DNA of 64,000 nucleotides from Patescibacteria group bacterium (GCA_041674765.1 JBAYVE010000001.1:134177-198176); one strand, 5' to 3'. Positions 22,468-51,926 are shown, counted from the first letter of the stretch. Translations and numbers: made by a program. The notes: generated by a model from the letters alone, not told the origin.

Positions 22468-24813
22468 ATGGCATCTAAGTTGAAGTATGTTCTCTGGTTC
22501 AAGGAAATCGGTAAGGACGATATTCCGTTAGTCGGCGGCAAAGGCGCCAATCTTGGTGAGCTCACGAAGGCTGGCATTCCGGTGCCGAATGGTTTTTGCG
22601 TCACGGCTCAGGCTTACTACCACTTTTTGAAGAAGACCGGCATTGAAAACCAAATCAATAAACTTTTGAAAGGTCTAAATCCGGAGGATAACAAAAAGTT
22701 GAATAAAGTTGCTAAGGAAATTAAAAAGATTATCCTTGGAGCAGAAATTCCTGACGATCTCTCGAAAGCAATCGAAGAATCCTATTATCAGCTTGGCAGT
22801 TTCCCGGTGGCTGTCCGCTCTAGCGCTACTGCCGAAGATTTGCCAGAAGCCTCATTCGCCGGCCAGCAGGCGACTTTTCTGAACATCAAGGGCAAGAAAA
22901 AGGTGGTAGAAGCCACTTTGGCTTGTTATGCCTCCTTATTCGAAGCTAGAGCTATTTACTACCGGATTATCAACAAATATGACCACATGAAGATTGGCTT
23001 GTCAGCAGTCGTCCAAAATATGGTTCAGTCTGACAAATCGGGCATTCTCTTTACTGTCGACCCTGTTTCAGAAGACGCCGGCAAAATGGTAATCGAAGCA
23101 GGCTATGGCCTAGGAGAGGCAATAGTTTCCGGGTCTGTCACGCCGGACCGTTATATTATCGATAAATCAAAATCAGAAATTATTGACAAAGAAATAAACC
23201 GTCAGACTTGGAAAATTGTACATAATATTGAAGGGGGAGACAAGCATTTGGCAGTGTCGAAAAGCCTTCAATCCAAACAAAAAATCACCGATGAAGAGGT
23301 ATTAAAATTGGCGGAAATCGCCCTAAAAATCGAAAAACATTATGGCAAACCGCAAGATACAGAGTGGGCAATTGAAGACAGCGTAGTCTATTTCGTCCAA
23401 TCCCGTCCTATCACCACATTAAATAAAAAGTCAATCCATTCGGCAGGCTCCGGACAAGCAATAAAAAGTCAAAACGAAGGTATTACCTCTGGCGATTCTA
23501 TTGAAATCGGCAAAGCAACCGTTTTGCTTAAAGGTGCCGCCGCTTCTCTCGGGATGGCTTCTGGGCCTGTCAAAATAATTCATAAGCCGACAGAGATAGA
23601 CAAAATTCAGCAGGGTGATGTTTTGGTCACAGAAATGACAACCCCTGATTTTGTGCCAGCAATGAGAAAAGCGACTGCGATAGTCACTGATACCGGCGGT
23701 CGGACTTGTCACGCAGCGATAGTTTCTCGCGAGCTTGGCATCCCATGCGTTGTTGGTACAGGGACAGCCACTCACAAACTTGCTAACGGTCAGGTTATCA
23801 CCGTCGATGGTGCGAGCGGAATGGTCTATAAGGGAAAAATTTCACAGAGTCAGACTCAAAATACAGCAAAAATCGCAGGTTCGGGTTCACAAGTCTCTGA
23901 AGAGATACCTGTTACTGGCACAAAAGTTTATGTTAATCTAGGTGAGCCTCAATTGGCCGCTGAAATTGCAAAACTTCCTGTCGATGGTGTTGGTCTTCTT
24001 CGGGCTGAATTTATGATTGCAAATCTCGGCGAGCATCCGAAGGCAATGGTAGCAGCCGGTCGTTCTGAAAAATACGTTGCTGCTCTAGTGGAAGGATTAA
24101 AAACAATTGCCGGAGCATTTAACCCGCGTCCGGTAGTTTATCGCGCAACAGATTTCAAAACAAATGAATACAGGGGACTCAAAGGCGGGGATAAATATGA
24201 GCCGGTTGAGGATAATCCGATGATTGGCTACAGGGGGGCTTCCAGATATATCGCCGAGCCCGAGATGTTTGCCCTTGAACTAAGAGCCATCAAAAAGGTT
24301 CGAGACGAATTTGATCTAAAGAATCTCTGGATTATGGTGCCATTTGTTCGCACTGTCAGCGAGATGAAAGAATGTATGGAGTTGATTGAGAAGAACGGTT
24401 TGAAACAGGGCGCTGATCTCAAAATTTGGATGATGTGCGAAGTGCCATCAAATGTAATACTCCTCGAAAAATTTCTTGATCTTGGCATTGATGGGATATC
24501 AATTGGTTCCAATGATTTGACTCAGTTGACTCTTGGTGTTGATCGGGACAATCAAACATTGGCCAAAATCTTCGACGAACGCGATGAAGCTGTACAGCTG
24601 TCGATTGAATATGTGATCAAGACCTGCCGCAAGCGAAATGTGACCTGTTCTATCTGCGGTCAGGCTCCGAGCGTCTACCCTGAGATTACTGAAATGATGG
24701 TCAAGGCGGGCACGACTTCTGTTTCTGTCACTCCGGATATGATCATTCCAACAAAAAAACTAATCGCATCGGTAGAGAAACGAATACTGCTCTCAAAAAT
24801 TATTGAACGGTAG
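22468..24813 (+). CDS. ppsA: phosphoenolpyruvate synthase (pyruvate, water dikinase)
   Basis: ATP-grasp N-terminal domain, phosphohistidine motif TCHAAIVSRELGIPCVVG, PEP-utilising C-terminal motif GSNDLTQLTLGVDRDN. Confidence 0.9.
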   Translation: MASKLKYVLWFKEIGKDDIPLVGGKGANLGELTKAGIPVPNGFCVTAQAYYHFLKKTGIENQINKLLKGLNPEDNKKLNKVAKEIKKIILGAEIPDDLSKAIEESYYQLGSFPVAVRSSATAEDLPEASFAGQQATFLNIKGKKKVVEATLACYASLFEARAIYYRIINKYDHMKIGLSAVVQNMVQSDKSGILFTVDPVSEDAGKMVIEAGYGLGEAIVSGSVTPDRYIIDKSKSEIIDKEINRQTWKIVHNIEGGDKHLAVSKSLQSKQKITDEEVLKLAEIALKIEKHYGKPQDTEWAIEDSVVYFVQSRPITTLNKKSIHSAGSGQAIKSQNEGITSGDSIEIGKATVLLKGAAASLGMASGPVKIIHKPTEIDKIQQGDVLVTEMTTPDFVPAMRKATAIVTDTGGRTCHAAIVSRELGIPCVVGTGTATHKLANGQVITVDGASGMVYKGKISQSQTQNTAKIAGSGSQVSEEIPVTGTKVYVNLGEPQLAAEIAKLPVDGVGLLRAEFMIANLGEHPKAMVAAGRSEKYVAALVEGLKTIAGAFNPRPVVYRATDFKTNEYRGLKGGDKYEPVEDNPMIGYRGASRYIAEPEMFALELRAIKKVRDEFDLKNLWIMVPFVRTVSEMKECMELIEKNGLKQGADLKIWMMCEVPSNVILLEKFLDLGIDGISIGSNDLTQLTLGVDRDNQTLAKIFDERDEAVQLSIEYVIKTCRKRNVTCSICGQAPSVYPEITEMMVKAGTTSVSVTPDMIIPTKKLIASVEKRILLSKIIER

Positions 24814-25258
24814 GAATTCGATTTTTATCGTTCGAACATCGCATATTATGATTCAAACAAAGTGAGAACTAACTTAGTTTTTATATTTCAGCGGAAGATT
24901 TATCCTCTTAAAACCCCACAATAGATCCCACTTCGCTTCCTCCTTCGCTAAAGCTACGGAATGGCACGGCGAGGGACACGGTCGGAATGACTAACTATTT
25001 TGCAGTACTTAGTACTATAATCTGAAGATTTCTCCCCCTTTTCGAGGGGGAGCTAGAGGGGGTGTATTTAAATTTGTCATCCCAGGGGCAGGCAAAGTCG
25101 AAGGCCGGGGATTCAATGCCTCTTTATCGTTCGAACAAGCGAGAACTATTCTTTTTTTGTGCCTATCAAAGCAAGCGCTCTTACCTCAACCTCTTGACTG
25201 CTATGTCGATTCGGCGTATAATATATATAGAAATATCCCACAATAAGGAGGTACGGGG

Positions 25259-25687
25259 ATGTTTAGTTTTGGTGGTTCGCAGGGAATCAAGTTGTACATC
25301 AATGGCAGATTTTCTGCCCGAGGGATGACTTCGCTCAAGTTAATCAAGCGTCGAGTTATAGATAGTCGCTTGAGATCCCAATATTATCGTGCTCACATTG
25401 AGCACACCCGTGAAGTCACTCCTCAACAGAGAGAGCTATTAAGTCAACTGATGCCGTCGATCTCTTGCAAGCTCAAAACGATCGAAAGCGTCGCGATCGA
25501 CGTTTATGAGAAAAGCCGAGCCGAAGTGGTTGGCATGGTCGACCCAGTGACCGCTCGCGTTGACGTGCTGCAGGCAAGTCCTTTAGGAATTTTGCAATTT
25601 GCAGTTATTGTTGACATAACCATTCCTCGCGTCATCGACGCATGGAATGTTCCAAGTACAGAAAATAGCTGCCCCAAGGCATCTTAG
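25259..25687 (+). CDS. hypothetical protein in a GC-rich islet
   Basis: Strong Shine-Dalgarno AAGGAGG 7 nt upstream. Followed by a perfect intrinsic terminator. GC content clearly above the window average. Confidence 0.5.
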   Translation: MFSFGGSQGIKLYINGRFSARGMTSLKLIKRRVIDSRLRSQYYRAHIEHTREVTPQQRELLSQLMPSISCKLKTIESVAIDVYEKSRAEVVGMVDPVTARVDVLQASPLGILQFAVIVDITIPRVIDAWNVPSTENSCPKAS

Positions 25688-25706
25688 TCATAGCACTTAT
25701 CTTTGC

Positions 25707-25746
25707 CTTTCCCTGACCGGTTCGTCCGGTCAGGGAAAGTTTTTTA
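25707..25746 (+). terminator. rho-independent terminator
   Basis: Perfect 14-bp stem ctttccctgaccgg / ccggtcagggaaag, loop ttcgt, then a T-run. Confidence 0.75.
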
Positions 25747-25757
25747 TAAGGGAATAA

Positions 25758-26345
25758 TTATTTCTTCTTATTTTCAATCTCTTGATCTAGGTGATCGAAG
25801 ATATTGGTTAACTCTTTATTAAACTCCAGATATGGTAGGGCATAAGGTCTTCGGCTGTGAGAGCCGATATCCTCCGTTGTGCCTCGCCAAACTATTTTGT
25901 TGTTTGATACCTCTACCTGCAAGGTATAGCAGATTTTATCAAGCGCCTTTACCACTTTCGATTCGATTGTCTTGCCCTCATCATATTCTTGCCAGAGGCC
26001 ATAATATTCCTTCTGCATATCTGCCGGCAGCAAGGAAAATAACTTATCAGCGGAGATTATTTCTTTTTGCCTTTTTTTGTTCTTCTCCTGCTCTGTTTCA
26101 GGCCAAGAGTCACCAGTATATATTTCAACCAGATCATGCACAATTGCCAATTTCAGAGCTTTGAGTTCGTCAAAATTAATTCCGATTTCATCTTTCACAG
26201 TCATAATCATCAAGGCCAGATGCCATGAATGTTCGGCATCATTTTCGCGTCTTTTGCGGTCGGAAAGACAAGGGATCCGCTCAATTAGTTTGAGTTTCTC
26301 TGTCTCCTTCCAAAAAGCAATAATTTTTTGCAATCGGTTATCCAT
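25758..26345 (-). CDS. HD-domain phosphohydrolase (YfbR-like 5'-deoxynucleotidase family)
   Basis: HD motif NDAEHSWHLALMI. Start trimmed to M41 of the ORF-track entry to limit overlap with the neighbouring gene. Confidence 0.7.
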   Translation of the reverse strand: MDNRLQKIIAFWKETEKLKLIERIPCLSDRKRRENDAEHSWHLALMIMTVKDEIGINFDELKALKLAIVHDLVEIYTGDSWPETEQEKNKKRQKEIISADKLFSLLPADMQKEYYGLWQEYDEGKTIESKVVKALDKICYTLQVEVSNNKIVWRGTTEDIGSHSRRPYALPYLEFNKELTNIFDHLDQEIENKKK

Positions 26346-26368
26346 TATGTATGAGGGATTATCAATTT

Positions 26369-27229
26369 TTACCGCAGCATCATTATTCCAAAAAGAATGA
26401 TGACAATTGCTATATATTGTTTCAGCTCCAATTTTTCTCGGTAGACAAAAGCTCCGTAGATACAAACAACTAGCGGGCCAGCGGCGGCCAAAGCAGTCAT
26501 GATGCTCAAAGAATAAATTTTGATGCCCTGATAGTATGCCATCACGCCTACAATGGATAGCAAGGAAATTGCCAACACTGGTTTTATATTCGTGAAAGTA
26601 GGCTTTTCAACTCTATCTTTATTGAAAAGTAAAATAATAAACACAATCCCGAGCATCATTGTTTCCTCTAGATATGAGGTTAGGACAGCGCCCATTTCCA
26701 TTACTGGAATTCTGATCAGAAAAAAGTAAATACCCCAGCCGATAGCAGCAAGTAGGGCATAATAAATTCCGCTTGATTTTTGGAAGAGGTGAGAGTTTTT
26801 GAAATCCCTGAATTTGATAGATATCAGTAGAATGCCACAAATGATTATGGCTATTGCAAAAATTTCAGTTGCTGTAAGACGATCTTGATATGCCACCATA
26901 GCCAAGAAAGCGGTGAAGACGGTGTAAATAGATGACACGGGGCTGACAATTCCTACTTTCCCCAAATCCATTCCCTTATAAAAGAAGTAAAGCGGCCAAT
27001 AGCCGATGAAAGAGATAACAACAGTAATCAAAGCATATTTTAGTGAAAAATGAGCAAACTGGCCGGTCAAAAGTACAATGCCAAGTAGTATAACTGACAT
27101 AAAAATGCCCCGCCAGAACATAAGTTTATTCGGGCCGAAAGTCCTGATCGGCTTTTTGGAAATAGCGTTTCCAAGCCCCATTGTGACGAGAGCTAAAATT
27201 CCTAGAAATAATCCGAGAGATGCGTTCAT
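26369..27229 (-). CDS. EamA/DMT-family transporter
   Basis: Ten TM helices with duplicated EamA-like halves. Confidence 0.7.
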   Translation of the reverse strand: MNASLGLFLGILALVTMGLGNAISKKPIRTFGPNKLMFWRGIFMSVILLGIVLLTGQFAHFSLKYALITVVISFIGYWPLYFFYKGMDLGKVGIVSPVSSIYTVFTAFLAMVAYQDRLTATEIFAIAIIICGILLISIKFRDFKNSHLFQKSSGIYYALLAAIGWGIYFFLIRIPVMEMGAVLTSYLEETMMLGIVFIILLFNKDRVEKPTFTNIKPVLAISLLSIVGVMAYYQGIKIYSLSIMTALAAAGPLVVCIYGAFVYREKLELKQYIAIVIILFGIMMLR

Positions 27230-27326
27230 AATTTATAATTACCTTTTATTTCTTTATGCCTTGATAACTCGATAAACTTTTAACTAACCTTATACTTCAA
27301 GCTAATAATAACATAGATTAGATTGA

Positions 27327-27965
27327 TTAGATTTTTTCGACATTCGGTTTGACATCATATTCGTCTTTCCACTCCCAGCCGTGGGATTCGAACTTTGGTT
27401 TCAGTCTCTTTTTCAATTCCTTGAGCAACGGCTTGGAATCGGGGCAATTATTTACTGCTTTGTCGGGATATGGTGCGATCAATTCCGGATGGTCAAAACA
27501 ACTATCTCCGATTGCAGACATATGATTTATAGTCTCAATCTTGTCCAGTGCTTTGACCAGTTTTGCTTCCTCCGTTTTTCCTTCCTCGTATTCTTGCCAA
27601 AAATCATATATTTTCATACCTGATTTTTGAGGCAAGATTGATTTAAAATGATCTATTGCTTTTATTTCTGCTGCGCGCTTTTCTTCCTTCGTTTTCAAAC
27701 CGAAAGCAATAAGAGAATTATCGGTATCACCCGCTAATGCTTCTACTAAGTCGTGAATCAGTGCCATTTCCAAAGATTTTATCTTGTTCACCTTTAAATT
27801 TAATTCATCAATAGCCAAGAATACCAACATCGCCAAGTGCCAGGAATGATCGGCGCTTGACTCTTTATTTACCATCTGCGGAGTATTTCCCCAGCGTTTC
27901 GTGTTCTTCAGAGTATCCGAAACTTCAAGGAAATCAAATATTTTTTTAATTTTGTTTTCTTTCAT
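27327..27965 (-). CDS. HD-domain phosphohydrolase (paralog of 25758-26345)
   Basis: HD motif SSADHSWHLAMLVFLAIDE. Start taken at MKENKIKK (M25 of the ORF-track entry). Confidence 0.7.
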   Translation of the reverse strand: MKENKIKKIFDFLEVSDTLKNTKRWGNTPQMVNKESSADHSWHLAMLVFLAIDELNLKVNKIKSLEMALIHDLVEALAGDTDNSLIAFGLKTKEEKRAAEIKAIDHFKSILPQKSGMKIYDFWQEYEEGKTEEAKLVKALDKIETINHMSAIGDSCFDHPELIAPYPDKAVNNCPDSKPLLKELKKRLKPKFESHGWEWKDEYDVKPNVEKI

Positions 27966-28055
27966 ATCTGCTTGTCTGTCATTCCTGCGGAGGCAGGAAT
28001 CTAGGTACGAAAACGCGCCTTCTGGATCCCGGATCAAGTCCGGGATGACAAGGGG

Positions 28056-28658
28056 TTAGCTAATTAATAAATTACTGATTTCTCTCCAATTATAAACACG
28101 TTTTATATTTTTATGTTCAACGACTGGTTGGTTCCAAGGCGTATCGTACAGCAAGACAAAAACATTTTTATCAGCACAGTCTTCTGCATGCAATATTAAA
28201 TCCTCAACTAGAATATCGGCATTCAGATCATTACATATTTCTCCCTTGGATTTGCCTTCGTATCCCAAATGCTTATGGCTTGAAAAATATATTTCGTCAA
28301 AAACCTTGGGAAAATGCTGGTCTAGCCAATCAGAAGTTTTCTTCCGCAACTTATCAGGTCTGGAGGTTACTAAAGTGAGGCCAAAACCATTTTTTTTCAA
28401 TTCTAGCAGGGCAGATTGAGCCTCCGCTCTGGGTAATATCTTGTCAAAAGAAGGGCTCAAAAAAAATTCGTCTAGGACTAAGCCAATTTTTCTATAGCTT
28501 GGATCCAATATCGTCAGTCCATTGGGATCGTCTTTGGAAATATCTGTGATTTTATGAGAGGTGTTAAACTTCTGGTTATGAAAATCAAAAAACCTCTCTG
28601 TTAAATCATTCAAGACATCATCAAGATCAACGGCGATTTTTTTATTTATGTGTTTCAT
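28056..28658 (-). CDS. 5'(3')-deoxyribonucleotidase (NT5C-family HAD)
   Basis: N-terminal KKIAVDLDDVLNDL DxD motif and overall NT5C layout. Confidence 0.7.
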   Translation of the reverse strand: MKHINKKIAVDLDDVLNDLTERFFDFHNQKFNTSHKITDISKDDPNGLTILDPSYRKIGLVLDEFFLSPSFDKILPRAEAQSALLELKKNGFGLTLVTSRPDKLRKKTSDWLDQHFPKVFDEIYFSSHKHLGYEGKSKGEICNDLNADILVEDLILHAEDCADKNVFVLLYDTPWNQPVVEHKNIKRVYNWREISNLLIS

Positions 28659-28965
28659 TTAGTTTATCCCAATCCCAAACCCTTTTCTCATTAAATTCCA
28701 TTTTCTTTTTTATCTCTTGTTCAATATCAATCTCGAATACTCCGGCCAGGTTTAGCACTCGGATAATTATATCCGCCAGTTCCTCCTTGAAGCCGTCCTT
28801 TCCGTCAATATTTTTTCTTCGGTAAGCTTCGTAAGCTTCCGAAACTTCGGAATGAATCAGGGCTATCTTTTCGGCGACATTAATTTCCTTAAGGTTAGTA
28901 CCAAAGCCTTTTCTTTCGGCCTGAGCCATAATTTCACCAATTAAATCGTTCAAGCTTTTACTCAT
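28642..28965 (-). CDS. MazG-like nucleotide pyrophosphohydrolase
   Basis: IALIHSEVSEAYEAYRK...EELADIIIRVLNLA is an all-alpha NTP-PPase EExxE/D motif pair. Start trimmed to M19 of the ORF-track entry. Confidence 0.7.
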   Translation of the reverse strand: MSKSLNDLIGEIMAQAERKGFGTNLKEINVAEKIALIHSEVSEAYEAYRRKNIDGKDGFKEELADIIIRVLNLAGVFEIDIEQEIKKKMEFNEKRVWDWDKLNETHK

Positions 28966-29368
28966 TTCTAAATGATTGGAATTCATCAACCGTTGTTTGG
29001 TATAATTTGCCTTCGACATTAGCCGCGATTGTCATATTATGATCTCCGCGTAGAGCACCCTTCAATATCTCCTTACTGGTAAACTCGCTGAAAGCCAATG
29101 AAAGGACTTTGGTACCGTTTTCTCTGTCATGGCCGATGAAGGTGATGATAGGGTTACTACCAGATTCGATTGCAGCTAACAGCGCTTCCCGTGAAAGCGG
29201 AGCGTGGGCTGTTTCGTCTGCCACCGGGGCTGGTTCGCCGCTTGTAACAGGAATTGGGCTGGCTAGATCTATCCTGTCAAATGATAGTTGACCCTCGGGG
29301 GCCTTTCTCGCCTGAGGAATGTCGGGAGAAACTTCTGGATCCCTGGTAATGTCTTGCTCTCTGTTCAT
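28958..29368 (-). CDS. hypothetical protein (Pro-rich N-terminal half, GC-rich)
   Basis: ORF only. No recognisable motif. Confidence 0.35.
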   Translation of the reverse strand: MNREQDITRDPEVSPDIPQARKAPEGQLSFDRIDLASPIPVTSGEPAPVADETAHAPLSREALLAAIESGSNPIITFIGHDRENGTKVLSLAFSEFTSKEILKGALRGDHNMTIAANVEGKLYQTTVDEFQSFRNE

Positions 29369-29380
29369 AGGAACTCCTAT

Positions 29381-30028
29381 TTATATTAAGTATTTTTCTA
29401 ATTCGTCTAAATTATCAACTATCAAATCAGGCTTCAGAGCCGCCAAAAATTCCTTGCTTTGTAACCCAGTCGCTACGGCAGCCGATAATATGCCGGCTTT
29501 TTTTGCCGCTTTGATGTCATTGGCATGATCTCCGACATAAATAATTTCATCCTTCAACACATTATACTTCTCTATGCAATCAAAGAGAAGCTGTTCTTTC
29601 GTCTGTTCAGTATCAGAATGGCAAACGAAATCAAATTCCAAGCGGTCATTGTGGCCGTTTTCTAGGACATTTTGAATCACACCAGTGTTATTGCCTGTCA
29701 CGATACCCAGGATTTTCCCATTCTGCCGCAGTGAAGTAATAAAATTTTGAGCAATAATTTCTACATCAGCAAAATGCTTGGTCATATATTCGATCGTCAA
29801 TTTTTCTACTTCCTGCCAAGAGAGGGTTGTGTCAGGATTATTTTGAACCATCAGCCTGGCATTGCCGGCGACGCTAGAGCCCCAGGCCTGTTCCTCGGAA
29901 ATGCCTTGGAACTTCAAGTTATGTTTTTTATCAAGATCGATCCTAACTTTTTTAAAAATATCAAAAGAATCGATCAATGTCAGATCGAAGTCAAAAATTA
30001 CTGCTTTTACATGTCGTCTTCGATTCAT
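29381..30028 (-). CDS. HAD-family hydrolase (phosphatase)
   Basis: Motif I VIFDFDLTLIDS. Later motifs KILGIVTGN and VGDHANDIKAAKKAG. Confidence 0.8.
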   Translation of the reverse strand: MNRRRHVKAVIFDFDLTLIDSFDIFKKVRIDLDKKHNLKFQGISEEQAWGSSVAGNARLMVQNNPDTTLSWQEVEKLTIEYMTKHFADVEIIAQNFITSLRQNGKILGIVTGNNTGVIQNVLENGHNDRLEFDFVCHSDTEQTKEQLLFDCIEKYNVLKDEIIYVGDHANDIKAAKKAGILSAAVATGLQSKEFLAALKPDLIVDNLDELEKYLI

Positions 30029-30477
30029 TATTTATTATAAATTACATACGTTTTGGCGATTTTGTCATGAAGCGCCTGCTTTTTGCTATCAAAGCCTGCT
30101 ATGATATAGCCGATAAGCAGAGTAATTGCCGAAATAAATTTTCCAATGATTTCCCGGAGGATTACCGTCCAAACATCAAGTTTGGTGCCATCGTCTCTGA
30201 CAACTTTCAATCCTAGTGCCATCTTACCGACAGTAGCGCCGTAAATTGTGGTCATCGCTACATAGTAAGCCCAGCCCAAGAGCGTTCTCAAATAATATGA
30301 GGTGTTAAAAGAATATGACAGACTTTCACTGGGGGAGAGAAAGGGACTAGTAGGGAATATCAACGCCAATATTGGGCCCAAGACCAAGCCAAGCAGCAGC
30401 CCGTCGATAATCACAGCCAAAAATCTTACCCAGAAGCCAGCATATTTCTGACTATTTTCTTTTTTATCTTTTTCCAC
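30028..30477 (-). CDS. RDD-family membrane protein
   Basis: AGFWVRFLAVIIDGLLLGLV RDD signature. Three TM helices. Confidence 0.7.
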   Translation of the reverse strand: MEKDKKENSQKYAGFWVRFLAVIIDGLLLGLVLGPILALIFPTSPFLSPSESLSYSFNTSYYLRTLLGWAYYVAMTTIYGATVGKMALGLKVVRDDGTKLDVWTVILREIIGKFISAITLLIGYIIAGFDSKKQALHDKIAKTYVIYNK

Positions 30478-30542
30478 GACACTCCTTCTTTAGTAGTTGT
30501 TTAGATATAGGATACCAATCTTGGAATTGCTTGTCCAACCTC

Positions 30543-30571
30543 TTTACAAAAATATTGCCCTTTTATATAGT
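30543..30571 (+). promoter_or_regulatory. sigma70-like promoter for the 30603 gene
   Basis: TTTACA, 17-nt spacer, TATAGT. Confidence 0.45.
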
Positions 30572-30602
30572 ATGAGCGAACGCTGGCATATGGAGGTTCG
30601 GT

Positions 30603-30935
30603 ATGGAGAGTGCATCGCTATGGGCAGCCATATTGTTGGTTGCTCTCTACCTGGTCTATTTTCTGCTGTGCCGGAAGGGGGAAAAGGGGATAAGGAACGA
30701 GGCGAGGAGTGCCGCTCTGGCAGAAGCCGGTGCATCGTGGACGGTTATCTGCTCTCATGATATTAGACTGACGCCAAAACTATGCTGCCTCTTGCCGATG
30801 GCATGTGTTACCATCGTCTTGGGCAAAAGTCGAAACGGTGAGCCGGTCAACGAGCATGACAGCATCGTCAAAAGGGTCGATGTCAGCGTCTGCCAATGTG
30901 CATGGCGCTCGAGCCACCACATAGTGGAACTATGA
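30603..30935 (+). CDS. hypothetical small membrane protein in a GC-rich islet
   Basis: GGAGG Shine-Dalgarno 6 nt before the ATG. N-terminal TM helix. Own promoter and terminator. GC well above the window average. Confidence 0.45.
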   Translation: MESASLWAAILLVALYLVYFLLCRKGEKGIRNEARSAALAEAGASWTVICSHDIRLTPKLCCLLPMACVTIVLGKSRNGEPVNEHDSIVKRVDVSVCQCAWRSSHHIVEL

Positions 30936-30947
30936 ACGCTTGCATGT

Positions 30948-30985
30948 CTCCCGGGGAGCCAACCCAGCTCTCCGGGATTTTTTTG
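30948..30985 (+). terminator. rho-independent terminator
   Basis: 9-bp GC stem ctcccgggg...ctctccggg, then TTTTTTT. Confidence 0.7.
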
Positions 30986-31032
30986 ATTATGTAAAAGAGG
31001 AATGATTGAAACGCCCCACCCCGATGGGCTGT

Positions 31033-31929
31033 TTACTTTTTTGTGATAATTAGATAGTTAGCTATGAGGATAAATACACCGCCGATAATGATTGAGAAAG
31101 TGATGGGTTGATGAAAAAATATGGCGGCGAGTATCGTTCCAACCACAGGTTCTAAAAGCATTACGATGCCGGCGCTGACCGTGGGCACTGTTCTCACGGC
31201 TTTCAGATAAAAAACGTTATTAAATAAGACTGCGACCAAGCCAAAAAAAGCAATGGACAGCCATATTTTAAACGGCCAATGGAAGGAAAAATTCATTAGT
31301 GTCGGCTCTACCACAATATTCTTGGCTATGAGGAAGAAAACGACCAAAAATATTGCCATGAAGAGATGACTCACAATATATGTATTGATTGGACTATTAT
31401 TTTTTTTCGAAGCATAACTGCCGATGACTACCCAGAGCGATAAGCCGATTCCGCCAATGAGGGCTATAACTATGCCCAAGAGGCTGCCAATATCGTTTAC
31501 CTGCCACGGGCCGATCAGAAATATTATTCCTATTATCACCAATAAACAGGCAAAAATGTCAAAAAGATGTATTTTTTCTTTTAGGAAGATATGCGAAAGA
31601 ATAACCGTCCAAAGCGGCTGAGTGTATAGAAGCAAAAGTGCGATTGATACCGGAGTGCCGAGAATTACCGATCCAAACTGGCATATAGTGATAACAGCTT
31701 CGACCAGTCCGTAAAGAATAAAAACTGCCAAGAATTTTTTTCTTATTTGCAGTTGTTCCGAAAAAAAAGAAAAGGGGATCATGACTAGCAAAATTACCGC
31801 CAATGGCAAAAGTGAAATTTCAAATAGAGATAAGCCGGTATTCGAGAGAGCTTTGCCGCCGAAAACCACAAAACCGGAGAGGGCTGCGGCTAGGATTAAA
31901 AAGATGTAGTCATTTTTAAAATTATTCAT
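31033..31929 (-). CDS. EamA/DMT-family transporter
   Basis: Ten TM helices. Confidence 0.7.
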   Translation of the reverse strand: MNNFKNDYIFLILAAALSGFVVFGGKALSNTGLSLFEISLLPLAVILLVMIPFSFFSEQLQIRKKFLAVFILYGLVEAVITICQFGSVILGTPVSIALLLLYTQPLWTVILSHIFLKEKIHLFDIFACLLVIIGIIFLIGPWQVNDIGSLLGIVIALIGGIGLSLWVVIGSYASKKNNSPINTYIVSHLFMAIFLVVFFLIAKNIVVEPTLMNFSFHWPFKIWLSIAFFGLVAVLFNNVFYLKAVRTVPTVSAGIVMLLEPVVGTILAAIFFHQPITFSIIIGGVFILIANYLIITKK

Positions 31930-32533
31930 CTAATTCTTTCAAAATTTTTTTTAGGCGATTATAATAATAGTCATTCGTATTGGAGGCAAGAGGTAAGTAT
32001 AAATCCTCTGTTTCTTTTATATATCTTTCGAATTTTGCCGGATTTAATTCTTTCAGACATAGCGAGCATTCTAAATTATTAGCCCTATCCGATAGTTTCA
32101 CCAGGCATGACTCTTCCGGGGCTTGTTTTAATCTTCTGATAATTTTTTCATTAATAGCCCTCTTCTCTATTTGAGTTAATTTTTCGCTGTTGTCTTCCCT
32201 TGATTTTGTGATTGGTTTGATTATTCCATATATTTCAATGCCGAATTGATCAATGAATCTTTGATCATTCATTTTGGCGTCGTCCTCAATAACATCATGC
32301 AGCAGCGCACCAGCCAAGAGCGATTCAAGGTTTTCTCTGCCAGCAAAATTGGCAGCTAAGTCAAGCGTAACTGGGTAAATATGCTCCTCCAAATATGGTT
32401 TGCCATCATCTCGCTTTTGTTCTTTGTGAGACTTTTTCGCTTGAAGAAGTGCTTTCTTAAAGAGAGGAGATATTGCAAAGTGCTGGTTTGAAAGGGCTGT
32501 TAAAAGTTCTTCTTCGGTCACATACGGTATCAT
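31922..32533 (-). CDS. HD-domain protein of RelA/SpoT hydrolase type (small alarmone hydrolase-like)
   Basis: LLAGALLHDVIEDD matches the RelA/SpoT (p)ppGpp hydrolase HD signature. Confidence 0.65.
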   Translation of the reverse strand: MIPYVTEEELLTALSNQHFAISPLFKKALLQAKKSHKEQKRDDGKPYLEEHIYPVTLDLAANFAGRENLESLLAGALLHDVIEDDAKMNDQRFIDQFGIEIYGIIKPITKSREDNSEKLTQIEKRAINEKIIRRLKQAPEESCLVKLSDRANNLECSLCLKELNPAKFERYIKETEDLYLPLASNTNDYYYNRLKKILKELDE

Positions 32534-32949
32534 ATAATCCCTTCGTCCTTGAGCATTTGCTTGTGATCAAAGGCTAGTTCCATATTATTAATTTCTTCGC
32601 TCGAAAACCAGCCGATTTCAGAGTTTTCGTGGTTTAGAACAAAATCGTAGCTTTTAAGTTTGCAGCGGTGAGGCAGGCAAATCATTGTCTTGGTAGGATG
32701 ACGGCCGATTTTATCATAATAACGGCCGGTGAATTCAATGTCATAGGCTTCCTGGCCTATTTCCTCCATTACTTCCCGCTTTATAGTATCCTCAATTTCT
32801 TCGCCCCATTCGGCGGTTCCGGATAAGATGCTCCACATATCCGGATAGGCTTTTGAGGTTGCACTTCTCTTGACTAATAGAAATTTGCCCCGACCATTTT
32901 CGATGATTGCATCAATGCCGATCCATGGGTGATCTTGTGCTCTATTCAT
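32530..32949 (-). CDS. NUDIX hydrolase
   Basis: Nudix box GTAEWGEEIEDTIKREVMEEIG. ATGA overlap with the downstream gene. Confidence 0.8.
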   Translation of the reverse strand: MNRAQDHPWIGIDAIIENGRGKFLLVKRSATSKAYPDMWSILSGTAEWGEEIEDTIKREVMEEIGQEAYDIEFTGRYYDKIGRHPTKTMICLPHRCKLKSYDFVLNHENSEIGWFSSEEINNMELAFDHKQMLKDEGII

Positions 32950-33160
32950 AAATATAACCGCCTTCTAATATTAGATTATCAGTCACAAGATTGATTATCA
33001 ATCGGTTGCTATAATTTCTTTGGTATATAAAAGGGTATACGTATTCGATCTTGGCCCTTTTATCAATACTAGAGCGGTAATTCATGCATATAAGTTTTCC
33101 AAGGTCTTGCATATGACAAGGAATCGGATTAAAAGATAGAAGGTAACTTTAGGGGGTTAT

Positions 33161-33723
33161 ATGAAAAGCATTTTGATCACGGGTGCTCCGGGAAGCGGAA
33201 AAACAACTCTGGCAAGAAATTTGGCAGCCGAACTCGGCTATCAATGTTTTGGCACAGATATTATCAGAGAGATCGCAAGAGTCTTTGTACCACGATCACA
33301 GAACCCTTGGTTTCATACCTCGGCAATTATGGCAGGAAAATACGCCCCAAAGGTTCTGACCCTGTTATTTGGTCATATCAAAAGCAATCAAAAGAAATTG
33401 AGCCATGCCTAGATGCAATTATAAAACGGTTTGGCAAAGAGAATCAAAACGTGATTTTAGAAGGCTCGAATCTTCTCTGCAAATTTTTGAAACCTCCTCT
33501 GGAGAACTCTCTGAGCATAGTGATTAATATTCCTGAAGAGGCTGAGCATCTGAACAGAATAATGGGGCAGAGCGCTTCAAGATCGGTCTATAAGTTAGAC
33601 AATTTTGAAAAAATACGGCATTTACAGAATTATTTCGTTGATCAAGCTAGGCGAAATGGACATCTCGTTATTGATAACATATCAGCTGAAAGTACTATCC
33701 CAAAGATTATCGAACTGCTTTAA
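33161..33723 (+). pseudogene. frameshifted P-loop NTPase (2-phosphoglycerate kinase-like / AAA-type kinase)
   Basis: The Walker A segment (ILITGAPGSGKTTLA) is in frame 2 and ends at 33412. The continuation (VILEGSNLL...HLVIDN) is in frame 1 from about 33340. One protein is split across two frames near a CCCC/AAA run. Confidence 0.55.
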
Positions 33724-33747
33724 AAATGCGTGGATATTTTACCTGTA

Positions 33748-34191
33748 CTAGTTAATAATTTCCCCGGGTTTTTCTTCGGGCTGATTTGGTGAATTTGGCC
33801 TCAAATAGAGGGAATCTCGTTCTCTTGATCTCTTTTGTGAAGCGATGAAATCAGCGAGGCCCGTCTGCATAAGAGCAATGTTATGGATAGCCAAATTGAG
33901 GCTATCTATCTGCGCTTGCGTAGGTGTGTGATTTAAGGCCTTATCCAATTCAATTCCTGCGATAATTTCATCTTTTTTTGCTATTTCCGCATCAATTTCA
34001 TTTTGCAACTCAAGGACTGGGTCGCTCATTGCTTCTAGCTCTTGTTGCAGAAGGAAACATGGATTATTTTTCTCTAGAGGCAATATCCCTCGAGTTATTT
34101 TATTTTCTTCACCATCGACCTCTTTGACTTGTGTTTCGAACTGAGGGGGGATAAAACCGTCGCCAAATTTACTTTCAAACCTATTTCCCAT
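33748..34191 (-). CDS. hypothetical protein
   Basis: ORF only. Acidic, probably helical. Confidence 0.35.
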   Translation of the reverse strand: MGNRFESKFGDGFIPPQFETQVKEVDGEENKITRGILPLEKNNPCFLLQQELEAMSDPVLELQNEIDAEIAKKDEIIAGIELDKALNHTPTQAQIDSLNLAIHNIALMQTGLADFIASQKRSRERDSLYLRPNSPNQPEEKPGEIIN

Positions 34192-35089
34192 AAGTCTCCT
34201 TTCGGTTATTTGCTGCCAAAAAAATTCCGGCGAAAGCCAGACAAGAACCTATAAAAAAACCAAGTCCGATCTTTTCATTTAATAAAAGTATTGCCCAGAC
34301 AATGGTGAAAACAGGCTGGAGATATAATGTCATTGAGGCAATAGTAGCGCTGGCGTTTTTGATAACAAATTGATAAAGCAGATACCAAAGTCCAGTTCCG
34401 ACGATGCCGACATAGGCAGTGCAGAGAAAACCAATCATCGAAAAGTGTCTCAGGGCATCTATATTATCATGAAGGCCAGCGAAGACTAACGGAAATTGCA
34501 AAACAATGGTTGCTATAGCAAAGGAGAGGGTTAGAAAGATTGGCGAACATTTTTTTTGCGATTTTTTGGAAAAGACAGAGTAGAGGGCTTGGGAAAGAAC
34601 AGCCGACATAATGATCAAATTTCCCGTTAAATTGCCATCCAGTGAAGTTTGTCCCGTAATAACCGGAAGCATTATGATGACTAGGGCGCCTGAGAAACCA
34701 ATGATGATGCCGGCAATTTTTTTCTTTGATAGTCTCTCTTGTAATAAAAAGTATGAAAAAATTCCTGCCAGCAATGGCACGGTCGTATAGAGCATCTGAG
34801 CAGAGGAGGCGCTTGCCATACGAATGCCTATAGCGAAAAGAATGACATTGCCGGCGCCAAAAACAGAGGGGATGATTGCGCCTTTTAATTTATTAAAATT
34901 AATCTTTTCCTTTTGTGCCCAGAAAATCGGCGCTAAGATTACCAAAGCAAAGGCAAATCGAAGCAAGGTGAAGGGGGCCGGGGGGATTTCTTGAGTAGCA
35001 ATCTTGACAAAAACAGGGACAGCACCGCCTGCTATTGCCAGGGTTACTATCAATAATACAGCCTTATTGTTGAGGATGAACTTTTTCAT
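34181..35089 (-). CDS. EamA/DMT-family transporter
   Basis: Ten TM helices with two EamA halves. Confidence 0.7.
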   Translation of the reverse strand: MKKFILNNKAVLLIVTLAIAGGAVPVFVKIATQEIPPAPFTLLRFAFALVILAPIFWAQKEKINFNKLKGAIIPSVFGAGNVILFAIGIRMASASSAQMLYTTVPLLAGIFSYFLLQERLSKKKIAGIIIGFSGALVIIMLPVITGQTSLDGNLTGNLIIMSAVLSQALYSVFSKKSQKKCSPIFLTLSFAIATIVLQFPLVFAGLHDNIDALRHFSMIGFLCTAYVGIVGTGLWYLLYQFVIKNASATIASMTLYLQPVFTIVWAILLLNEKIGLGFFIGSCLAFAGIFLAANNRKETYGK

Positions 35090-35375
35090 TGCAAGTTAAG
35101 TGTACATAATTATTTCGTATTTTAAAACAAATGGCTGACTTTTGCTTTCCGGATTGTTTCCGATTGAATAAAGGCAGATAATTTGATAGTATTACTTCGT
35201 TTCCCGCATTCTGCTAAAGCGGTAGGAAGAGAGTATTTCTTCAAGAAACGTTCTTACTTCAAATAGCTAGAAGAGAATGAAATGATATAATCATGGAGAG
35301 GTTCCCGCATTCCGCCAAGCGGAAGCAGGGACGCCTGCTTCGCCAGTCGGCGAATGCGGCGCGCTATACCGATTA

Positions 35376-35618
35376 ATGTTTTTTACATATATATTAAAAA
35401 GTGATAAAGATAATAAATACTATTATGGCTCAACCGCAAATATAGATAATCGTTTATTGGAGCACAATAGTGGTAAAGTAATAGCAACGAAAAATCGACG
35501 TCCGTTCAAGTTAATCTTCTCTGAAGAATTCAGTACAAGGAGAGAAGCAATAAAGAGGGAATTTTTCTTCAAGAAGCGTTCGGGATATAAATGGCTTAAG
35601 GATAATAATATTATATAA
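35376..35618 (+). CDS. GIY-YIG nuclease superfamily protein (UPF0213 / YhbQ-like)
   Basis: FFTYILKSDKDNKYYYGSTANIDNRLLEHNSG is the GIY-YIG core. 80 aa. Confidence 0.8.
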   Translation: MFFTYILKSDKDNKYYYGSTANIDNRLLEHNSGKVIATKNRRPFKLIFSEEFSTRREAIKREFFFKKRSGYKWLKDNNII

Positions 35619-35621
35619 TAC

Positions 35622-35711
35622 GGTGGGATCGCATAGTGGCCTAGTGCGCACGCTTGGAAAGCGTGTAGGCGGGCAACCGTCTCCAGGGTTCGAATCCCTG
35701 TCCCACCGCCA
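35622..35711 (+). tRNA. tRNA-Ser (anticodon GGA) with encoded CCA
   Basis: Cloverleaf read directly from the sequence. Acceptor stem GGTGGGA/TCCCACC, anticodon loop TTGGAAA, long variable arm, T-loop GGTTCGAATCC, and a 3' GCCA. Confidence 0.85.
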
Positions 35712-35735
35712 GCCAAAATATTATCTTGGAAGAAT

Positions 35736-36122
35736 ATGAAAGAACATGATGTCTATGTAAAAAAATCACCTATAGATGGAATGGGTGTATTCGCTGCCAG
35801 AGATTTTAAAAAGGGAGAAACCATACTCAAATGGGACACTTCTGAGACCCTGACCGAAGAACAAGTGAAAGATTTATCAAATGTTTATAAAAAATATGTA
35901 TATTTAATTGACGGCAAATATACCGTTCAACAAGTTCCTGCACGATACGTTAATCATTCACGTGATCCAAATACTACGGTTATAAATTTTTCCGATGTGG
36001 CGATAAAGGATATCAAAAAGAATAACGAGATTACCTCTGATTGTTCCTCGAGTAAAGTCGAAGAACCAATAATTTGCAAATGTGGAAGTAGCAACTGCCG
36101 AGGAATAATTAAGAGAATGTAA
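35736..36122 (+). CDS. SET-domain protein (putative lysine methyltransferase)
   Basis: GMGVFAARDFKKGE, NHSRDPN (the NHSCxPN motif) and a post-SET CKCGSSNCRG. Confidence 0.8.
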   Translation: MKEHDVYVKKSPIDGMGVFAARDFKKGETILKWDTSETLTEEQVKDLSNVYKKYVYLIDGKYTVQQVPARYVNHSRDPNTTVINFSDVAIKDIKKNNEITSDCSSSKVEEPIICKCGSSNCRGIIKRM

Positions 36123-49094: not shown

Positions 49095-49380
49095 CTTTCC
49101 CTCCGTTTCTCATATCAGGCTTAGGCCTGTTTGCTGGCGTTATAATATAACATTTATTTCTGTTAGTCAAGGGTAAATTCCGTGATCCTAACCCCATCAA
49201 AGGTATTTATTCTTCGAATGGTACTCTTAAAAATGAGAAGTCTGTCGGTACTAACAAATGATCAAAGTTCTCGTCGTTCCTCCTCGAACAATAAGAAACA
49301 GGGAGATAGTAAGGTATTCGGAATCACGGCAAATTACAAAAAATTTGCAAAAAATCAATTTGCTCTCTAAAATTAGTCTT

Positions 49381-49968
49381 ATGATAAAAGCAATTATTTT
49401 TGATCTAGATGGCGTTTTTGTGACGGGACCCAAGTTTAGCGAGAGATTTATGAGGGATTTTGGCATATCTGCGTCTGAATTTATGCCTGTCTTTGAAGAA
49501 ATTATGTCTTTTGTAAAGAAGCCAGGTTCGGCTGATCTTTACAATTATTGGCAGCCTTATCTGGTAAAATGGAAAGTAAGCTTAAATGAAGAGCAGTTTT
49601 TAAACTATTGGTTTGGTTCTGAGACCATTGTCCCTGGTATGGTGGAGTGCGCAAGAGAATTGAAAGCCAGAGGTATGGAGGTAATTGTCCTCTCGAACAA
49701 TTTCAGGGAAAGATCTGAATATTATCAGAGGACATTTCCTGAACTTTTTTCAAATTTCGATCAGATCTATTTCTCCTGGCAGACAGGATTTCGCAAACCA
49801 GACAAAGGCGCATACCGTTTTGCGCTGACGCAAAACCATTTGAACCCAAGCGAGTGTCTATTCTTCGACGATTCCGAGAGGAATGTGGAAGCAGCGAGTG
49901 AACTTGGTATAAATGCCTTTCTCTATGAAGGTCCGGATCACGTGAAAGGCAAAACTGATGAGTTGTAA
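49381..49968 (+). CDS. HAD-family hydrolase
   Basis: Motif I IIFDLDGVFV. Later motifs VIVLSNN and FFDDSERNVEAA. Confidence 0.75.
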   Translation: MIKAIIFDLDGVFVTGPKFSERFMRDFGISASEFMPVFEEIMSFVKKPGSADLYNYWQPYLVKWKVSLNEEQFLNYWFGSETIVPGMVECARELKARGMEVIVLSNNFRERSEYYQRTFPELFSNFDQIYFSWQTGFRKPDKGAYRFALTQNHLNPSECLFFDDSERNVEAASELGINAFLYEGPDHVKGKTDEL

Positions 49969-50075
49969 AGCATATAGAACGATGGCCGAACAGCTGTATC
50001 TGAATGGATTGGATAATGAATATTATATGAAACTGTAAAAATTAAGTGGTTGGTTTTATAACTTGAAAAATAAAT

Positions 50076-50582
50076 ATGTCCAAAATAGTTATTGTCAACG
50101 AAAATAATGAAGTGATCGGCAGTAAAGAACGCTTGGAAGTTAGAAGTAGCGATATTTATCGAACGACCGGGCTTTGGATTACCAATTCCAAGGGTCAAGT
50201 TTTGTTGGCTCAGCGCAGCTTCAAGAAAAGCCACGACCCGGGGAGATGGGGTCCTGCTGTATCTGGTACGGTTGAGGAGGGTGAGAGTTATGATGAAAAT
50301 ATAAAGAAAGAGGCATGGGAGGAGCTCGGAATTGAAGGTTTGGAATTTGAGAAGGGTCCGATAAAATATACTCAAGGCAATCACAATCGTTTTAGCCAAT
50401 GGTATTTTCTTAAATTAGATAGAAACCTTGCAGATTTTACCGTTCAATATGAAGAAGTCGAGCGAATAAAATGGTTTGATAAAAATGAGTTGATTCAAGA
50501 TATAAAAGATAAGCCGGATAATTTCTTGCAGTCGATGCCGGAGCGAGTAAAAATGTTTTTGACAGAATTGAGATCTAAATGA
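50076..50582 (+). CDS. NUDIX hydrolase
   Basis: Nudix box GTVEEGESYDENIKKEAWEELGIEG. Confidence 0.8.
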   Translation: MSKIVIVNENNEVIGSKERLEVRSSDIYRTTGLWITNSKGQVLLAQRSFKKSHDPGRWGPAVSGTVEEGESYDENIKKEAWEELGIEGLEFEKGPIKYTQGNHNRFSQWYFLKLDRNLADFTVQYEEVERIKWFDKNELIQDIKDKPDNFLQSMPERVKMFLTELRSK

Positions 50583-51034
50583 ATAATCCCAAGGTAATTC
50601 CAGGAGTCCATCTGATATTTCGAAAGAAAAGTTGCAGATCTAACGAGAATGAATATCTACTCCACCAACGGCAAAACACGAAGTATTTCGATAGTTATTT
50701 CTCTGTGCCGGGCGGACACATTGATGGATTTGAGACTCCTATCGAGTGCGCAATTCGCGAAGCCATGGAGGAGCTGGCGGTCGAGGTCAAACCGGAGAAC
50801 CTCAGGTTGGTTAATACAATTTATCGTGTAAAAAAAGACGTTAATGAAATCAGAATAGACTTCTGTTACTTAATTAGAGAGTATTCTGGAGAAATTATTG
50901 CCGCAGAGCCAGAAAAGCATAGTCAACCCAAATGGTATCTAATCTCAGAACTCCCAAACCAGATGGTGCCGTATATACAAAAAGCAATTATTGACATAGA
51001 AAATGGCAGACATTTCACTAAATCCGAAGTATAA
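50579..51034 (+). CDS. NUDIX hydrolase
   Basis: Nudix box GGHIDGFETPIECAIREAMEELAVE. ATGA overlap with the upstream NUDIX gene. Confidence 0.8.
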   Translation: MNNPKVIPGVHLIFRKKSCRSNENEYLLHQRQNTKYFDSYFSVPGGHIDGFETPIECAIREAMEELAVEVKPENLRLVNTIYRVKKDVNEIRIDFCYLIREYSGEIIAAEPEKHSQPKWYLISELPNQMVPYIQKAIIDIENGRHFTKSEV

Positions 51035-51698: not shown

Positions 51699-51926
51699 GT
51701 CATCCTCGGGCAGGCATCGCCATGACCCGGGGATCCAATACCTTATTATCATCCAAACAAAGATTTTATTGTTCGAACACAGTGAGAATTATTATCATTT
51801 CTATTAGAGGACATGGGGACTCTCCGCCAGCTGGCGGACCGAAGTCGTCCCCCTATCCTCTAATAGCAATAAGGTATTGGATCCCCGGGCACCATTTCCA
51901 AAAACACCATTGGTCCCGAGGATGAC
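51699..51926. repeat. nested inverted-repeat structure (12-bp, 22-bp and 11-bp arm pairs plus an internal GC palindrome)
   Basis: gtcatcctcggg / cccgaggatgac and cccggggatccaataccttatt / aataaggtattggatccccggg are perfect pairs; a third pair was read as ctattagagga / tcctctaatag but could not be confirmed against the sequence. Inner palindrome ccgccagctggcgg. The 3' arm overlaps the mug start. Confidence 0.8.

Follow-up and report, generated by a model that had tools for sequence, protein, structure and literature searches.

We describe a run of eleven densely spaced minus-strand genes at positions 25758-32949 of a 64,000-nucleotide stretch of DNA from a Patescibacteria group bacterium (GCA_041674765.1 JBAYVE010000001.1:134177-198176; hereafter the window, meaning the whole stretch). 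Within ~7 kb, this member of the tiny-genome Patescibacteria carries seven genes for small nucleotide-dephosphorylating enzymes and two for membrane carriers. Two HD_3 phosphohydrolase paralogs (HD3a and HD3b) and two DMT-superfamily carriers (EamA1 and EamA2) form a four-gene core that is real and conserved in related genomes. The shell around this core varies between genomes, repeatedly contains nucleotide, polyphosphate or pyrophosphate hydrolases, and is unusually large here, where it encodes an NT5C-type phosphatase, a MazG-like pyrophosphohydrolase, a protein of no family (unk136), a HAD-IA phosphatase (HAD), an RDD-family membrane protein (RDD), a RelA/SpoT-type hydrolase domain (HD_4) and a NUDIX hydrolase (NUDIX1). 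The co-location of these genes is unusual, as is the kept pairing of HD_3 paralogs with DMT carriers, and no paper that describes this cluster was found in the literature. The region is probably a partly conserved and modest nucleotide-pool module, and no new kind of system. The reading that we favour, at a probability of about one half, is a neighbourhood for the stepwise dephosphorylation of (deoxy)nucleoside triphosphates and monophosphates, (d)NTPs and (d)NMPs, coupled to DMT transport, which would balance and sanitize the nucleotide pools of a cell living on salvaged nucleic acids.

The window sits within a 365,533-bp contig (ENA ERZ27247358 k141_2245327), whose proteins are named by NCBI as those of a "Patescibacteria group bacterium" metagenome-assembled genome. 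The surroundings of the cluster are housekeeping genes, including those for PNPase, RNase J, FtsK, RecA, RecX, a pyruvate phosphate dikinase/PEP-synthase-type enzyme (for which we use PPDK as shorthand), Alr, DnaG and sigma-70. Profile searches against Pfam, NCBIfam and PHROG upheld every family assignment that an earlier note on this DNA had made, and the catalytic motifs are intact (H..HD..D, DxDxV/T, ExxE/EExxD, HDxxED and the Nudix box). Equivalog level was reached by none of the proteins, with the YfbR model for the HD_3 pair and the models for HAD, NUDIX and EamA all below the NCBIfam cut-offs.

HD3a (25758..26333, minus strand, 191 aa) is an HD_3 phosphohydrolase of the YfbR/HDDC2 family, with scores of 126.9 bits against Pfam HD_3 (gathering score 22.5) and 57.9 bits against YfbR-like (gathering score 25.9). 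Its paralog HD3b (27327..27965, minus strand, 212 aa) is 32% identical to it and scores 121.7 and 46.5 bits against the same two models. Residues H35, H66-D67 and D132 of HD3a are invariant across 23 homologs, in an alignment that includes HD3b, and the closest solved structures to HD3a are 3kh1, HDDC2 (4dmb) and YfbR (2paq). EamA1 (26369..27229, minus strand, 286 aa; Pfam EamA 119.3 bits) lies between the two HD_3 genes, and EamA2 (31033..31929, minus strand, 298 aa; 102.7 bits) completes the core. A third DMT carrier, EamA3 (34181..35089, minus strand, 302 aa), matches EamA at 152.6 bits and TPT at 36.5 bits (gathering score 30). The earlier note had called such proteins EamA exporters: the family stands, on profiles and on the two EamA stretches present in each of the three, whereas "exporter" is a family label, the NCBIfam matches to amino-acid/metabolite exporter models being all sub-threshold. 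Its nearby EamA2, SpoT-like HD, NUDIX and EamA3 genes were likewise confirmed by Pfam.

HD3a was chosen as the anchor for finding relatives because NT5C and unk136 have no retrievable homologs, and the loci of ten relatives (designated by L numbers) were examined. The HD3a clade comprises ~48 homologs at 46-59% identity, and those with a named source are mostly labelled Patescibacteria. L085, L169 and L172 share with the window the backbone FtsK-RecA-RecX-PPDK ... Ddl/Alr/DnaG (Alr was not seen in L172), and their RecA and PPDK proteins are 79-86% and 72-75% identical to those of the window, respectively. In 3/3 of these syntenic relatives, orthologs of HD3a (51-58% identity), HD3b (~59%), EamA1 (40-43%) and EamA2 (43-54%) are found beside PPDK in an order that differs in each, and the EamA1 orthologs always adjoin HD_3 genes. 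An ortholog of HAD (36% identity, phmmer 4e-47) and a homolog of unk136 are kept in one of the three, L169. The co-localisation in related genomes that the earlier note had envisaged therefore holds for the core in three genomes and for HAD/unk136 in one, but not for the remainder. The full eight-gene block from HD3a to RDD does not look like a conserved module, because none of the ten relatives' loci holds a counterpart of NT5C, MazG-like, RDD, HD_4 or NUDIX1; these genes look like lineage-specific additions.

Other loci differ in what accompanies the anchor gene. Where the window has MazG/NT5C, L169 has a tandem HD3b-HD3b fusion (see below) and a 177-aa gene whose product lacks a Pfam match and for which the sole PDB matches, both weak, are to CYTH/triphosphate tunnel proteins (7ns8, E 0.02; another, E 0.3), so a CYTH reading is tentative; the same position is occupied in L085 by TerC and chorismate mutase genes and in L172 by a ferredoxin-like gene and small unknown open reading frames (ORFs). 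The HD3a homolog of L089 has a HAD2-like gene, an inorganic pyrophosphatase gene and a NUDIX gene as neighbours in a same-strand run, the HAD2-like gene lying two genes away and the NUDIX gene, which resembles NUDIX3 of the window (see below), ~3 kb off. In L179, the homolog stands beside genes for a YjjX-type NTPase_I-T, a small HD protein and an EamA carrier. As a negative control, HD3a-alignment scans of GTDB genomes and JGI metagenomes returned, among the matches listed, mostly distant HD_3 genes (Bacteroidota, Streptomyces and Lachnospiraceae).

The packing of the genes is operon-like. Junction distances and gene starts were taken from gene calls on the source contig. All ORFs of the earlier note are present at its coordinates on the minus strand, but the called genes for HD3a, HD3b and MazG-like start later than their longest ORFs (25758-26465, 27327-28037 and 28642-29019). 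The claim that the cluster genes follow one another on one strand was borne out, with overlaps or gaps of <=12 nt in two tight blocks, NT5C to RDD and EamA2 to NUDIX1. In the former, NT5C and MazG-like overlap by 17 nt, gaps of 4 nt and 12 nt separate MazG-like from unk136 and unk136 from HAD, and HAD and RDD overlap by 1 nt; in the latter, EamA2 and HD_4 overlap by 8 nt and HD_4 and NUDIX1 by 4 nt. The spacers beside the two HD_3 genes are longer, at 35-97 nt. Two GC-rich hairpins resembling repetitive extragenic palindromes (REP-like; 27978..28049, pattern GTCATYCC...GGRATS) occupy the spacer between NT5C and HD3b, with 2 matches to the pattern against 0.07 expected by chance, and they may mark a transcript boundary or stabilise the RNA.

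The run comprises more than one operon. EamA2, HD_4 and NUDIX1 share the minus strand with the eight-gene block, but continuity is broken between RDD and EamA2 by a convergent plus-strand ORF of 110 aa (orf110; 30603-30935, or to 30977 with its terminator; GC ~0.52), which splits the run into two minus-strand units. RDD is the first gene of the downstream unit and EamA2 the last of the NUDIX1-HD_4-EamA2 unit. The convergent ORF has a promoter-like site (30543-30571) and an 11-pair terminator hairpin (30949-30977). A search for riboswitches or leader RNAs ahead of the operons found none: an Rfam scan of 24700-35800 gave no element of any kind at E<=5, and the predicted fold of the 555-nt spacer is no better than that of shuffled sequence (z -0.35).

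Seven of the ten nucleotide/phosphate hydrolases among the ~74 window genes lie within one 12-gene run (permutation P ~0.0014), as do nine of 13 when the EamA genes are added (P ~6e-5), although this feature was the reason for picking the window, which makes the test post hoc. The same superfamilies supply the "house-cleaning" nucleotide hydrolases (MutT-type NUDIX, MazG, ITPase/YjjX and YjjG-type HAD), and several of the best NCBIfam matches here are MutT-, NudI-, YfcD- or YjjG-like, all under cut-off. Genes for house-cleaning hydrolases are scattered over the genome in model bacteria, whereas the window has seven in a 12-gene run with DMT carriers.

The two HD_3 paralogs invite comparison with the 5'-deoxynucleotidases YfbR of E. 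coli, human HDDC2 and yeast YGK1/YGL101W, with which they share the Pfam HD_3 and YfbR-like matches, the H..HD..D metal site and a length of ~190-210 aa; the best-matching solved structures also belong to this group. The R18-W19 pair of YfbR reportedly sets substrate specificity. At this position HD3b has K-R-W and HD3a has E-R-I. HD3b therefore shares the pair matching R18-W19, and it and all its orthologs keep R-W or R-Y, with R-I or R-V in the HD3a clade; the residues at this site suggest that the two enzymes probably differ in specificity. Unlike YfbR and HDDC2, the paralogs in the window are divergent and encoded together with DMT carriers, HD3a has R-I instead of R-W, and DUF1653 or tandem HD3b-HD3b fusions are seen in relatives. 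The tandem fusion, a 427-aa protein with two HD3b-type HD_3 domains, is encoded in L169 (11531-12814) and adjoins the EamA1 ortholog. We considered it as Rosetta-stone evidence for an HD3a/HD3b heterodimer and rejected that argument, because it joins HD3b to HD3b. In some relatives (L085 10001-10789, P0005; also P0007 and P0008), the C-terminus of HD3a carries a fused DUF1653 domain (PF07866, 86.9 bits), for which 3be3, an uncharacterised protein, is the sole solved relative. Two HD3a homologs from more distant Patescibacteria were seen among DNA-repair genes: that of L175 (9130-11565) lies between Fpg and holA (DNA polymerase III delta), abutting the former and overlapping the latter by 4 nt, and that of L176 (1428-3654) lies near a purine DNA glycosylase gene and abuts LexA. 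These contexts hint that HD3a may be linked to nucleotides released when DNA is repaired or degraded.

The NT5C-type protein (28056..28658, minus strand, 200 aa) is a 5'(3')-deoxyribonucleotidase-like HAD phosphatase that matches PF06941 over residues 8-198 at 42.5 bits (gathering score 24.8) and carries motif I, DLDDV, at residue 11. Its best profile match is phrog_420, a PHROG family without assigned function (91.8 bits). A k-mer search among 5.8 billion proteins returned no homolog beyond the query, no PDB sequence matched at E<=0.1, and the only phage matches were two "nucleotidases" at 31% identity. Mammalian NT5C and NT5M are its nearest functional comparison: the window protein has the Pfam NT5C domain above gathering score and the DxDxV nucleophile motif, and the proposed role, in which dNMP pools are trimmed to nucleosides able to exit the cell, would be alike. 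In animal cells, the cytosolic and mitochondrial NT5C enzymes run substrate cycles with deoxynucleoside kinases. Unlike them, the window protein is very divergent, has no partner kinase in the window and is encoded by a gene missing from the relatives' loci.

The overlapping MazG-like gene (28642..29019, called as 28642-28953, 103 aa, minus strand) encodes a small all-alpha NTP pyrophosphohydrolase with the motifs E58xxE and E79ExxD. Its Pfam scores are borderline (PF12643 MazG-like, 24.7 bits against a gathering score of 27; PF03819 MazG, 22.1 bits against 22), and its score against the PHROG "pyrophosphatase" family phrog_3301 is 85.9 bits. A tblastn search matched 155 phage records with identities of up to 57% (~31-57% among the matches listed), and the PDB matches are 1vmg (E 8e-4), 4qgp and, weakly, MazZ (7ody, E 0.067). 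It shares with these phage-type proteins the all-alpha fold, the ExxE and EExxD motifs and a length of ~100-125 aa, and differs from them in its chromosomal, non-prophage context, its coupling to an NT5C-type gene and its lack of PurZ/DatZ-type partners. MazG (NTP to NMP) and NT5C (NMP to nucleoside) would catalyse consecutive steps as predicted from their families, and their overlapping genes are likely to be translationally coupled. Since both proteins score best against phage families, a horizontally acquired cassette is suggested, but scans of IMG/VR found no close relatives of either on viral contigs; nor did phage records yield a close phage relative.

These components suggest a sequence of events that we infer largely from family membership. 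The core would be extended in this genome by the phage-type MazG-like and NT5C proteins, the HAD-IA phosphatase, the stand-alone RelA/SpoT-type hydrolase and NUDIX. Surplus or non-canonical (d)NTPs would be turned into (d)NMPs by the MazG-like and NUDIX enzymes, after which HD3a, HD3b, NT5C and possibly HAD would strip the last phosphate to give (deoxy)nucleosides, and the DMT carriers, presumably co-transcribed with the enzymes, could pass nucleosides or a related product over the membrane, with both cargo and direction being putative. Bacteria of the candidate phyla radiation (CPR) generally lack pathways for making nucleotides, and they are believed to recycle DNA taken up from outside (PMC8080830). 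The cell is expected to depend on salvaged DNA/RNA and not on de novo synthesis, and the module may balance and clean its pools by analogy with the NT5C cycles. The proposal in the earlier note of a nucleotide-pool module in a salvage-dependent genome is plausible on published grounds (PMC8080830), although only the core of the module is conserved.

Several observations weigh against the pool-balancing reading. There is no nucleoside kinase, nucleoside phosphorylase or riboswitch within the window, and five of the shell genes are absent from all ten relatives' loci. The interval from PPDK to Ddl/Alr/DnaG is variable and takes up unrelated genes (TerC, chorismate mutase, ferredoxin-like, SET, GIY-YIG and methyltransferases). 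HD3a-clade genes are solitary at five loci (L087, L175, L176, L177 and L005), where they have no nucleotide-hydrolase neighbours, and in the negative control distant HD_3 genes are essentially solitary in 160 loci of distant phyla, among the matches listed. Both paralogs fall far short of the YfbR equivalog (NCBIfam PRK03826, cut-off 122 bits), at 42.4 bits for HD3a and 29.6 bits for HD3b, and HD_3 members have several activities, including dNMP nucleotidase, dATP triphosphohydrolase and OxsA-type stepwise hydrolysis. HAD resembles phosphoglycolate phosphatase/PpaX no less than nucleotidases, and, among characterised proteins, those closest to the EamA carriers transport amino acids and other metabolites.

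A possible but somewhat unlikely alternative is that HD3a, HD3b, EamA1 and EamA2 alone are functional, with NT5C, MazG, HAD, RDD, HD_4 and NUDIX being unrelated accessory genes gathered between PPDK and Ddl/Alr/DnaG in a plasticity zone; their shared theme would then arise because small hydrolases are abundant in the Patescibacteria accessory gene pool. The interval is ~16 kb here versus ~7-11 kb in the relatives, and its contents differ among the four syntenic genomes (TerC/chorismate mutase in L085, Mur ligase/abhydrolase in L169 and ferredoxin-like/small ORFs in L172), as accretion would predict. The extra hydrolases have no counterparts in these three loci, NT5C and unk136 are near-orphans, and the REP-like hairpins and the convergent gene cut the run into pieces. 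Chance gathering fits less well with the start/stop overlaps of MazG-NT5C, HAD-RDD and NUDIX1-HD_4-EamA2, with the adjacency of biochemically consecutive functions, with the retention of HAD and unk136 in L169, with L089 and L179, which place other nucleotide/pyrophosphate hydrolases beside HD3a, or with the permutation P of ~0.0014. A further reading, a dedicated nucleotide-to-nucleoside conversion and transport system of this Patescibacteria lineage made of the HD_3 pair and the two DMT carriers, with EamA1 and EamA2 as unrecognised bacterial (deoxy)nucleoside carriers, is doubtful. In such a system, HD3b would be YfbR-like via its R-W pair, HD3a would have an altered substrate pocket, and genome-specific plug-in hydrolases (MazG/NT5C, the possible CYTH-like gene, the YjjX-type NTPase, NUDIX and inorganic pyrophosphatase) would feed it.

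It is improbable that the enzymes serve catabolism, with the sugar of the phosphatase-made nucleosides used as carbon and energy via a nucleoside phosphorylase and then the pentose bisphosphate/RuBisCO-III route or DeoC, and with the DMT carriers importing nucleosides or expelling free bases. The nucleoside/pentose bisphosphate pathway is common among CPR genomes (PMC12628685), the core is always beside a PPDK-type gene, and the solitary HD3a homolog of L087 is beside a phosphoribosyl pyrophosphate (PRPP) synthetase gene. Against this, no nucleoside phosphorylase, phosphopentomutase, DeoC, R15P isomerase or RuBisCO is encoded in the 64-kb window, and the convergent orientation of PPDK and HD3a means that they do not share a transcript. 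Nucleotidases would moreover be counter-productive for the AMP phosphorylase pathway, because AMP phosphorylase takes NMPs directly. Least credible of all, and very unlikely, is a phage-derived or anti-phage module, in which NT5C-MazG is what remains of a phage cassette for nucleotide metabolism or the cluster protects against phage by nucleotide depletion. The PHROG scores of NT5C (91.8 bits) and MazG (85.9 bits) are far above their Pfam scores, phages commonly carry MazG-like genes, HD3a and HD3b show weak similarity (26-35 bits) to the PHROG "dATP triphosphohydrolase" family, and MazG weakly matches MazZ (7ody). Yet there is no integrase, phage structural gene or flanking repeat, GC equals that of the surrounding genome, close relatives are lacking on IMG/VR contigs, and the called window genes include no PurZ-like gene. 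The resemblance to the Z-genome cluster (PurZ/MazZ/DatZ) is correspondingly limited: the window is without PurZ (adenylosuccinate-synthetase-like), and its similarity to MazZ and DatZ is weak. Known nucleotide-depletion defences rely on large dGTPases or dCTP deaminases, not on small nucleotidases. The suggestion of such a defence in the earlier note was not sustained by PADLOC, which gave no system-level match and none for HD3a, HD3b, NT5C, MazG, HD_4 or unk136, and reported only generic similarities for NUDIX (PDC-S07) and RDD (C-terminus of PD-T4-6).

The remaining genes of the run contribute less to the reading. unk136 (28958..29368, minus strand, 136 aa) has no Pfam, NCBIfam, PHROG or PADLOC match, and a k-mer search returned the query alone; its sole credible homolog is the product of a 140-aa gene of the L169 cluster, at 39% over 54 aa (E 7e-7). 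In a poor single-sequence AlphaFold2 (AF2) model (predicted local distance difference test, pLDDT, 55), the N-terminal half is of low confidence and looks unstructured, and a small alpha/beta domain follows at the C-terminus. A HMMER match to a 3172-aa Fn3-repeat receptor-type tyrosine phosphatase (9 short stretches, E 1e-6) was judged probably spurious; it is the sole non-self match among 1.84 billion representative proteins and could hint at an Fn3-like beta domain. HAD (29381..30028, minus strand, 215 aa) is a phosphoglycolate phosphatase/PpaX-like HAD-IA phosphatase (HAD_2, 75.3 bits) with DFDLT at residue 13 and GDHAND at residue 166; it falls far under the cut-offs of the NCBIfam phosphoglycolate phosphatase and PpaX models and reaches no equivalog. 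RDD (30028..30477, minus strand, 149 aa) matches Pfam RDD at 103.9 bits.

In the upstream unit, HD_4 (31922..32533, minus strand, 203 aa; 42.7 bits) is a stand-alone RelA/SpoT-type hydrolase domain of the small alarmone hydrolase/Mesh1-like kind. The domain spans residues 28-184 of 203 with no synthetase domain and has HDVIED at residue 79, and TIGR00691 spoT_relA matches its N-terminal region at 69 bits. Its likeness to the small alarmone hydrolases (Mesh1/SAH) lies in the HD_4 domain alone and in HDxxED, with membership assigned by sequence; unlike them, it is encoded in one operon-like unit together with NUDIX1 and EamA2. A long RelA/SpoT-type gene was seen on the contig of L176, a more distant Patescibacteria relative. 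NUDIX1 (32530..32949, minus strand, 139 aa; Pfam NUDIX 68.5 bits) has a complete Nudix box, and its best NCBIfam match is NudI-like at 48.9 bits, under cut-off.

A second small cluster on the plus strand (49258..51034; Pfam and NCBIfam) consists of HAD2 (49258-49968), NUDIX2 (50076-50582) and the MutT-like NUDIX3 (50579-51034). The tandem NUDIX pair at 50076-51034 had been described in the earlier note and was recovered with Pfam; HAD2, directly upstream, had been overlooked. Further nucleic-acid turnover genes encode a DHH/DHHA1 NrnA-like protein (oligoribonuclease/pAp phosphatase) and two members of the uracil-DNA glycosylase family (8369-9538, 13827-14459 and 51877-52506). At 33161-33723 on the plus strand, the gene for a P-loop kinase akin to the 2-phosphoglycerate kinase family is broken into two overlapping frames, with an 83-aa part covering profile positions 95-152 and a 159-aa part covering 147-287. 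Either the gene is a frameshifted pseudogene or the assembly contains an error; another, independent assembly (L002) shows the identical split. A Y1 (IS200-like) transposase is encoded at 57415-57960. A GIY-YIG domain ORF (35376-35711, plus strand, 80 aa) ends 3 nt before tRNA-Ser(GGA), and GIY-YIG-like ORFs are also found within the matching variable interval of L085 and L172.

The eight-gene block is flanked by two GC-rich (0.49-0.53) plus-strand ORFs, the convergent orf110 described above and orf142 (25259-25739, 142 aa), which also has a promoter-like site and a strong terminator hairpin. The two are unrelated to one another and have neither a family match nor a homolog in the syntenic relatives. 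An N-terminal hydrophobic stretch in orf110 may form a membrane helix. REP-like GC-rich hairpins also occur in intergenic DNA at 24824-25137, where two identical 15-nt copies of a direct repeat (TTTATCGTTCGAACA; positions 24824 and 25123) enclose ~285 bp of hairpin-rich DNA just past PPDK. This repeat-bracketed segment could be an insertion resembling a miniature inverted-repeat transposable element (MITE), with target duplication. For the gene cluster itself, a mobile-element origin was ruled against, as its flanks bear no meaningful repeats, either direct or inverted, an integrase is lacking, and GC equals background.

In Patescibacteria/CPR, nucleotides are thought to be scavenged from hosts or the environment. 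For the balancing, cleaning and membrane passage of these pools, the region provides concrete candidates for biochemical and transport assays, namely the two HD_3 paralogs, the two carriers and the orphan NT5C/MazG pair. If the carriers do not move nucleosides, the region would be an accessory-gene hotspot of ordinary small hydrolases. If they do, a gap in models of CPR metabolism would be filled.

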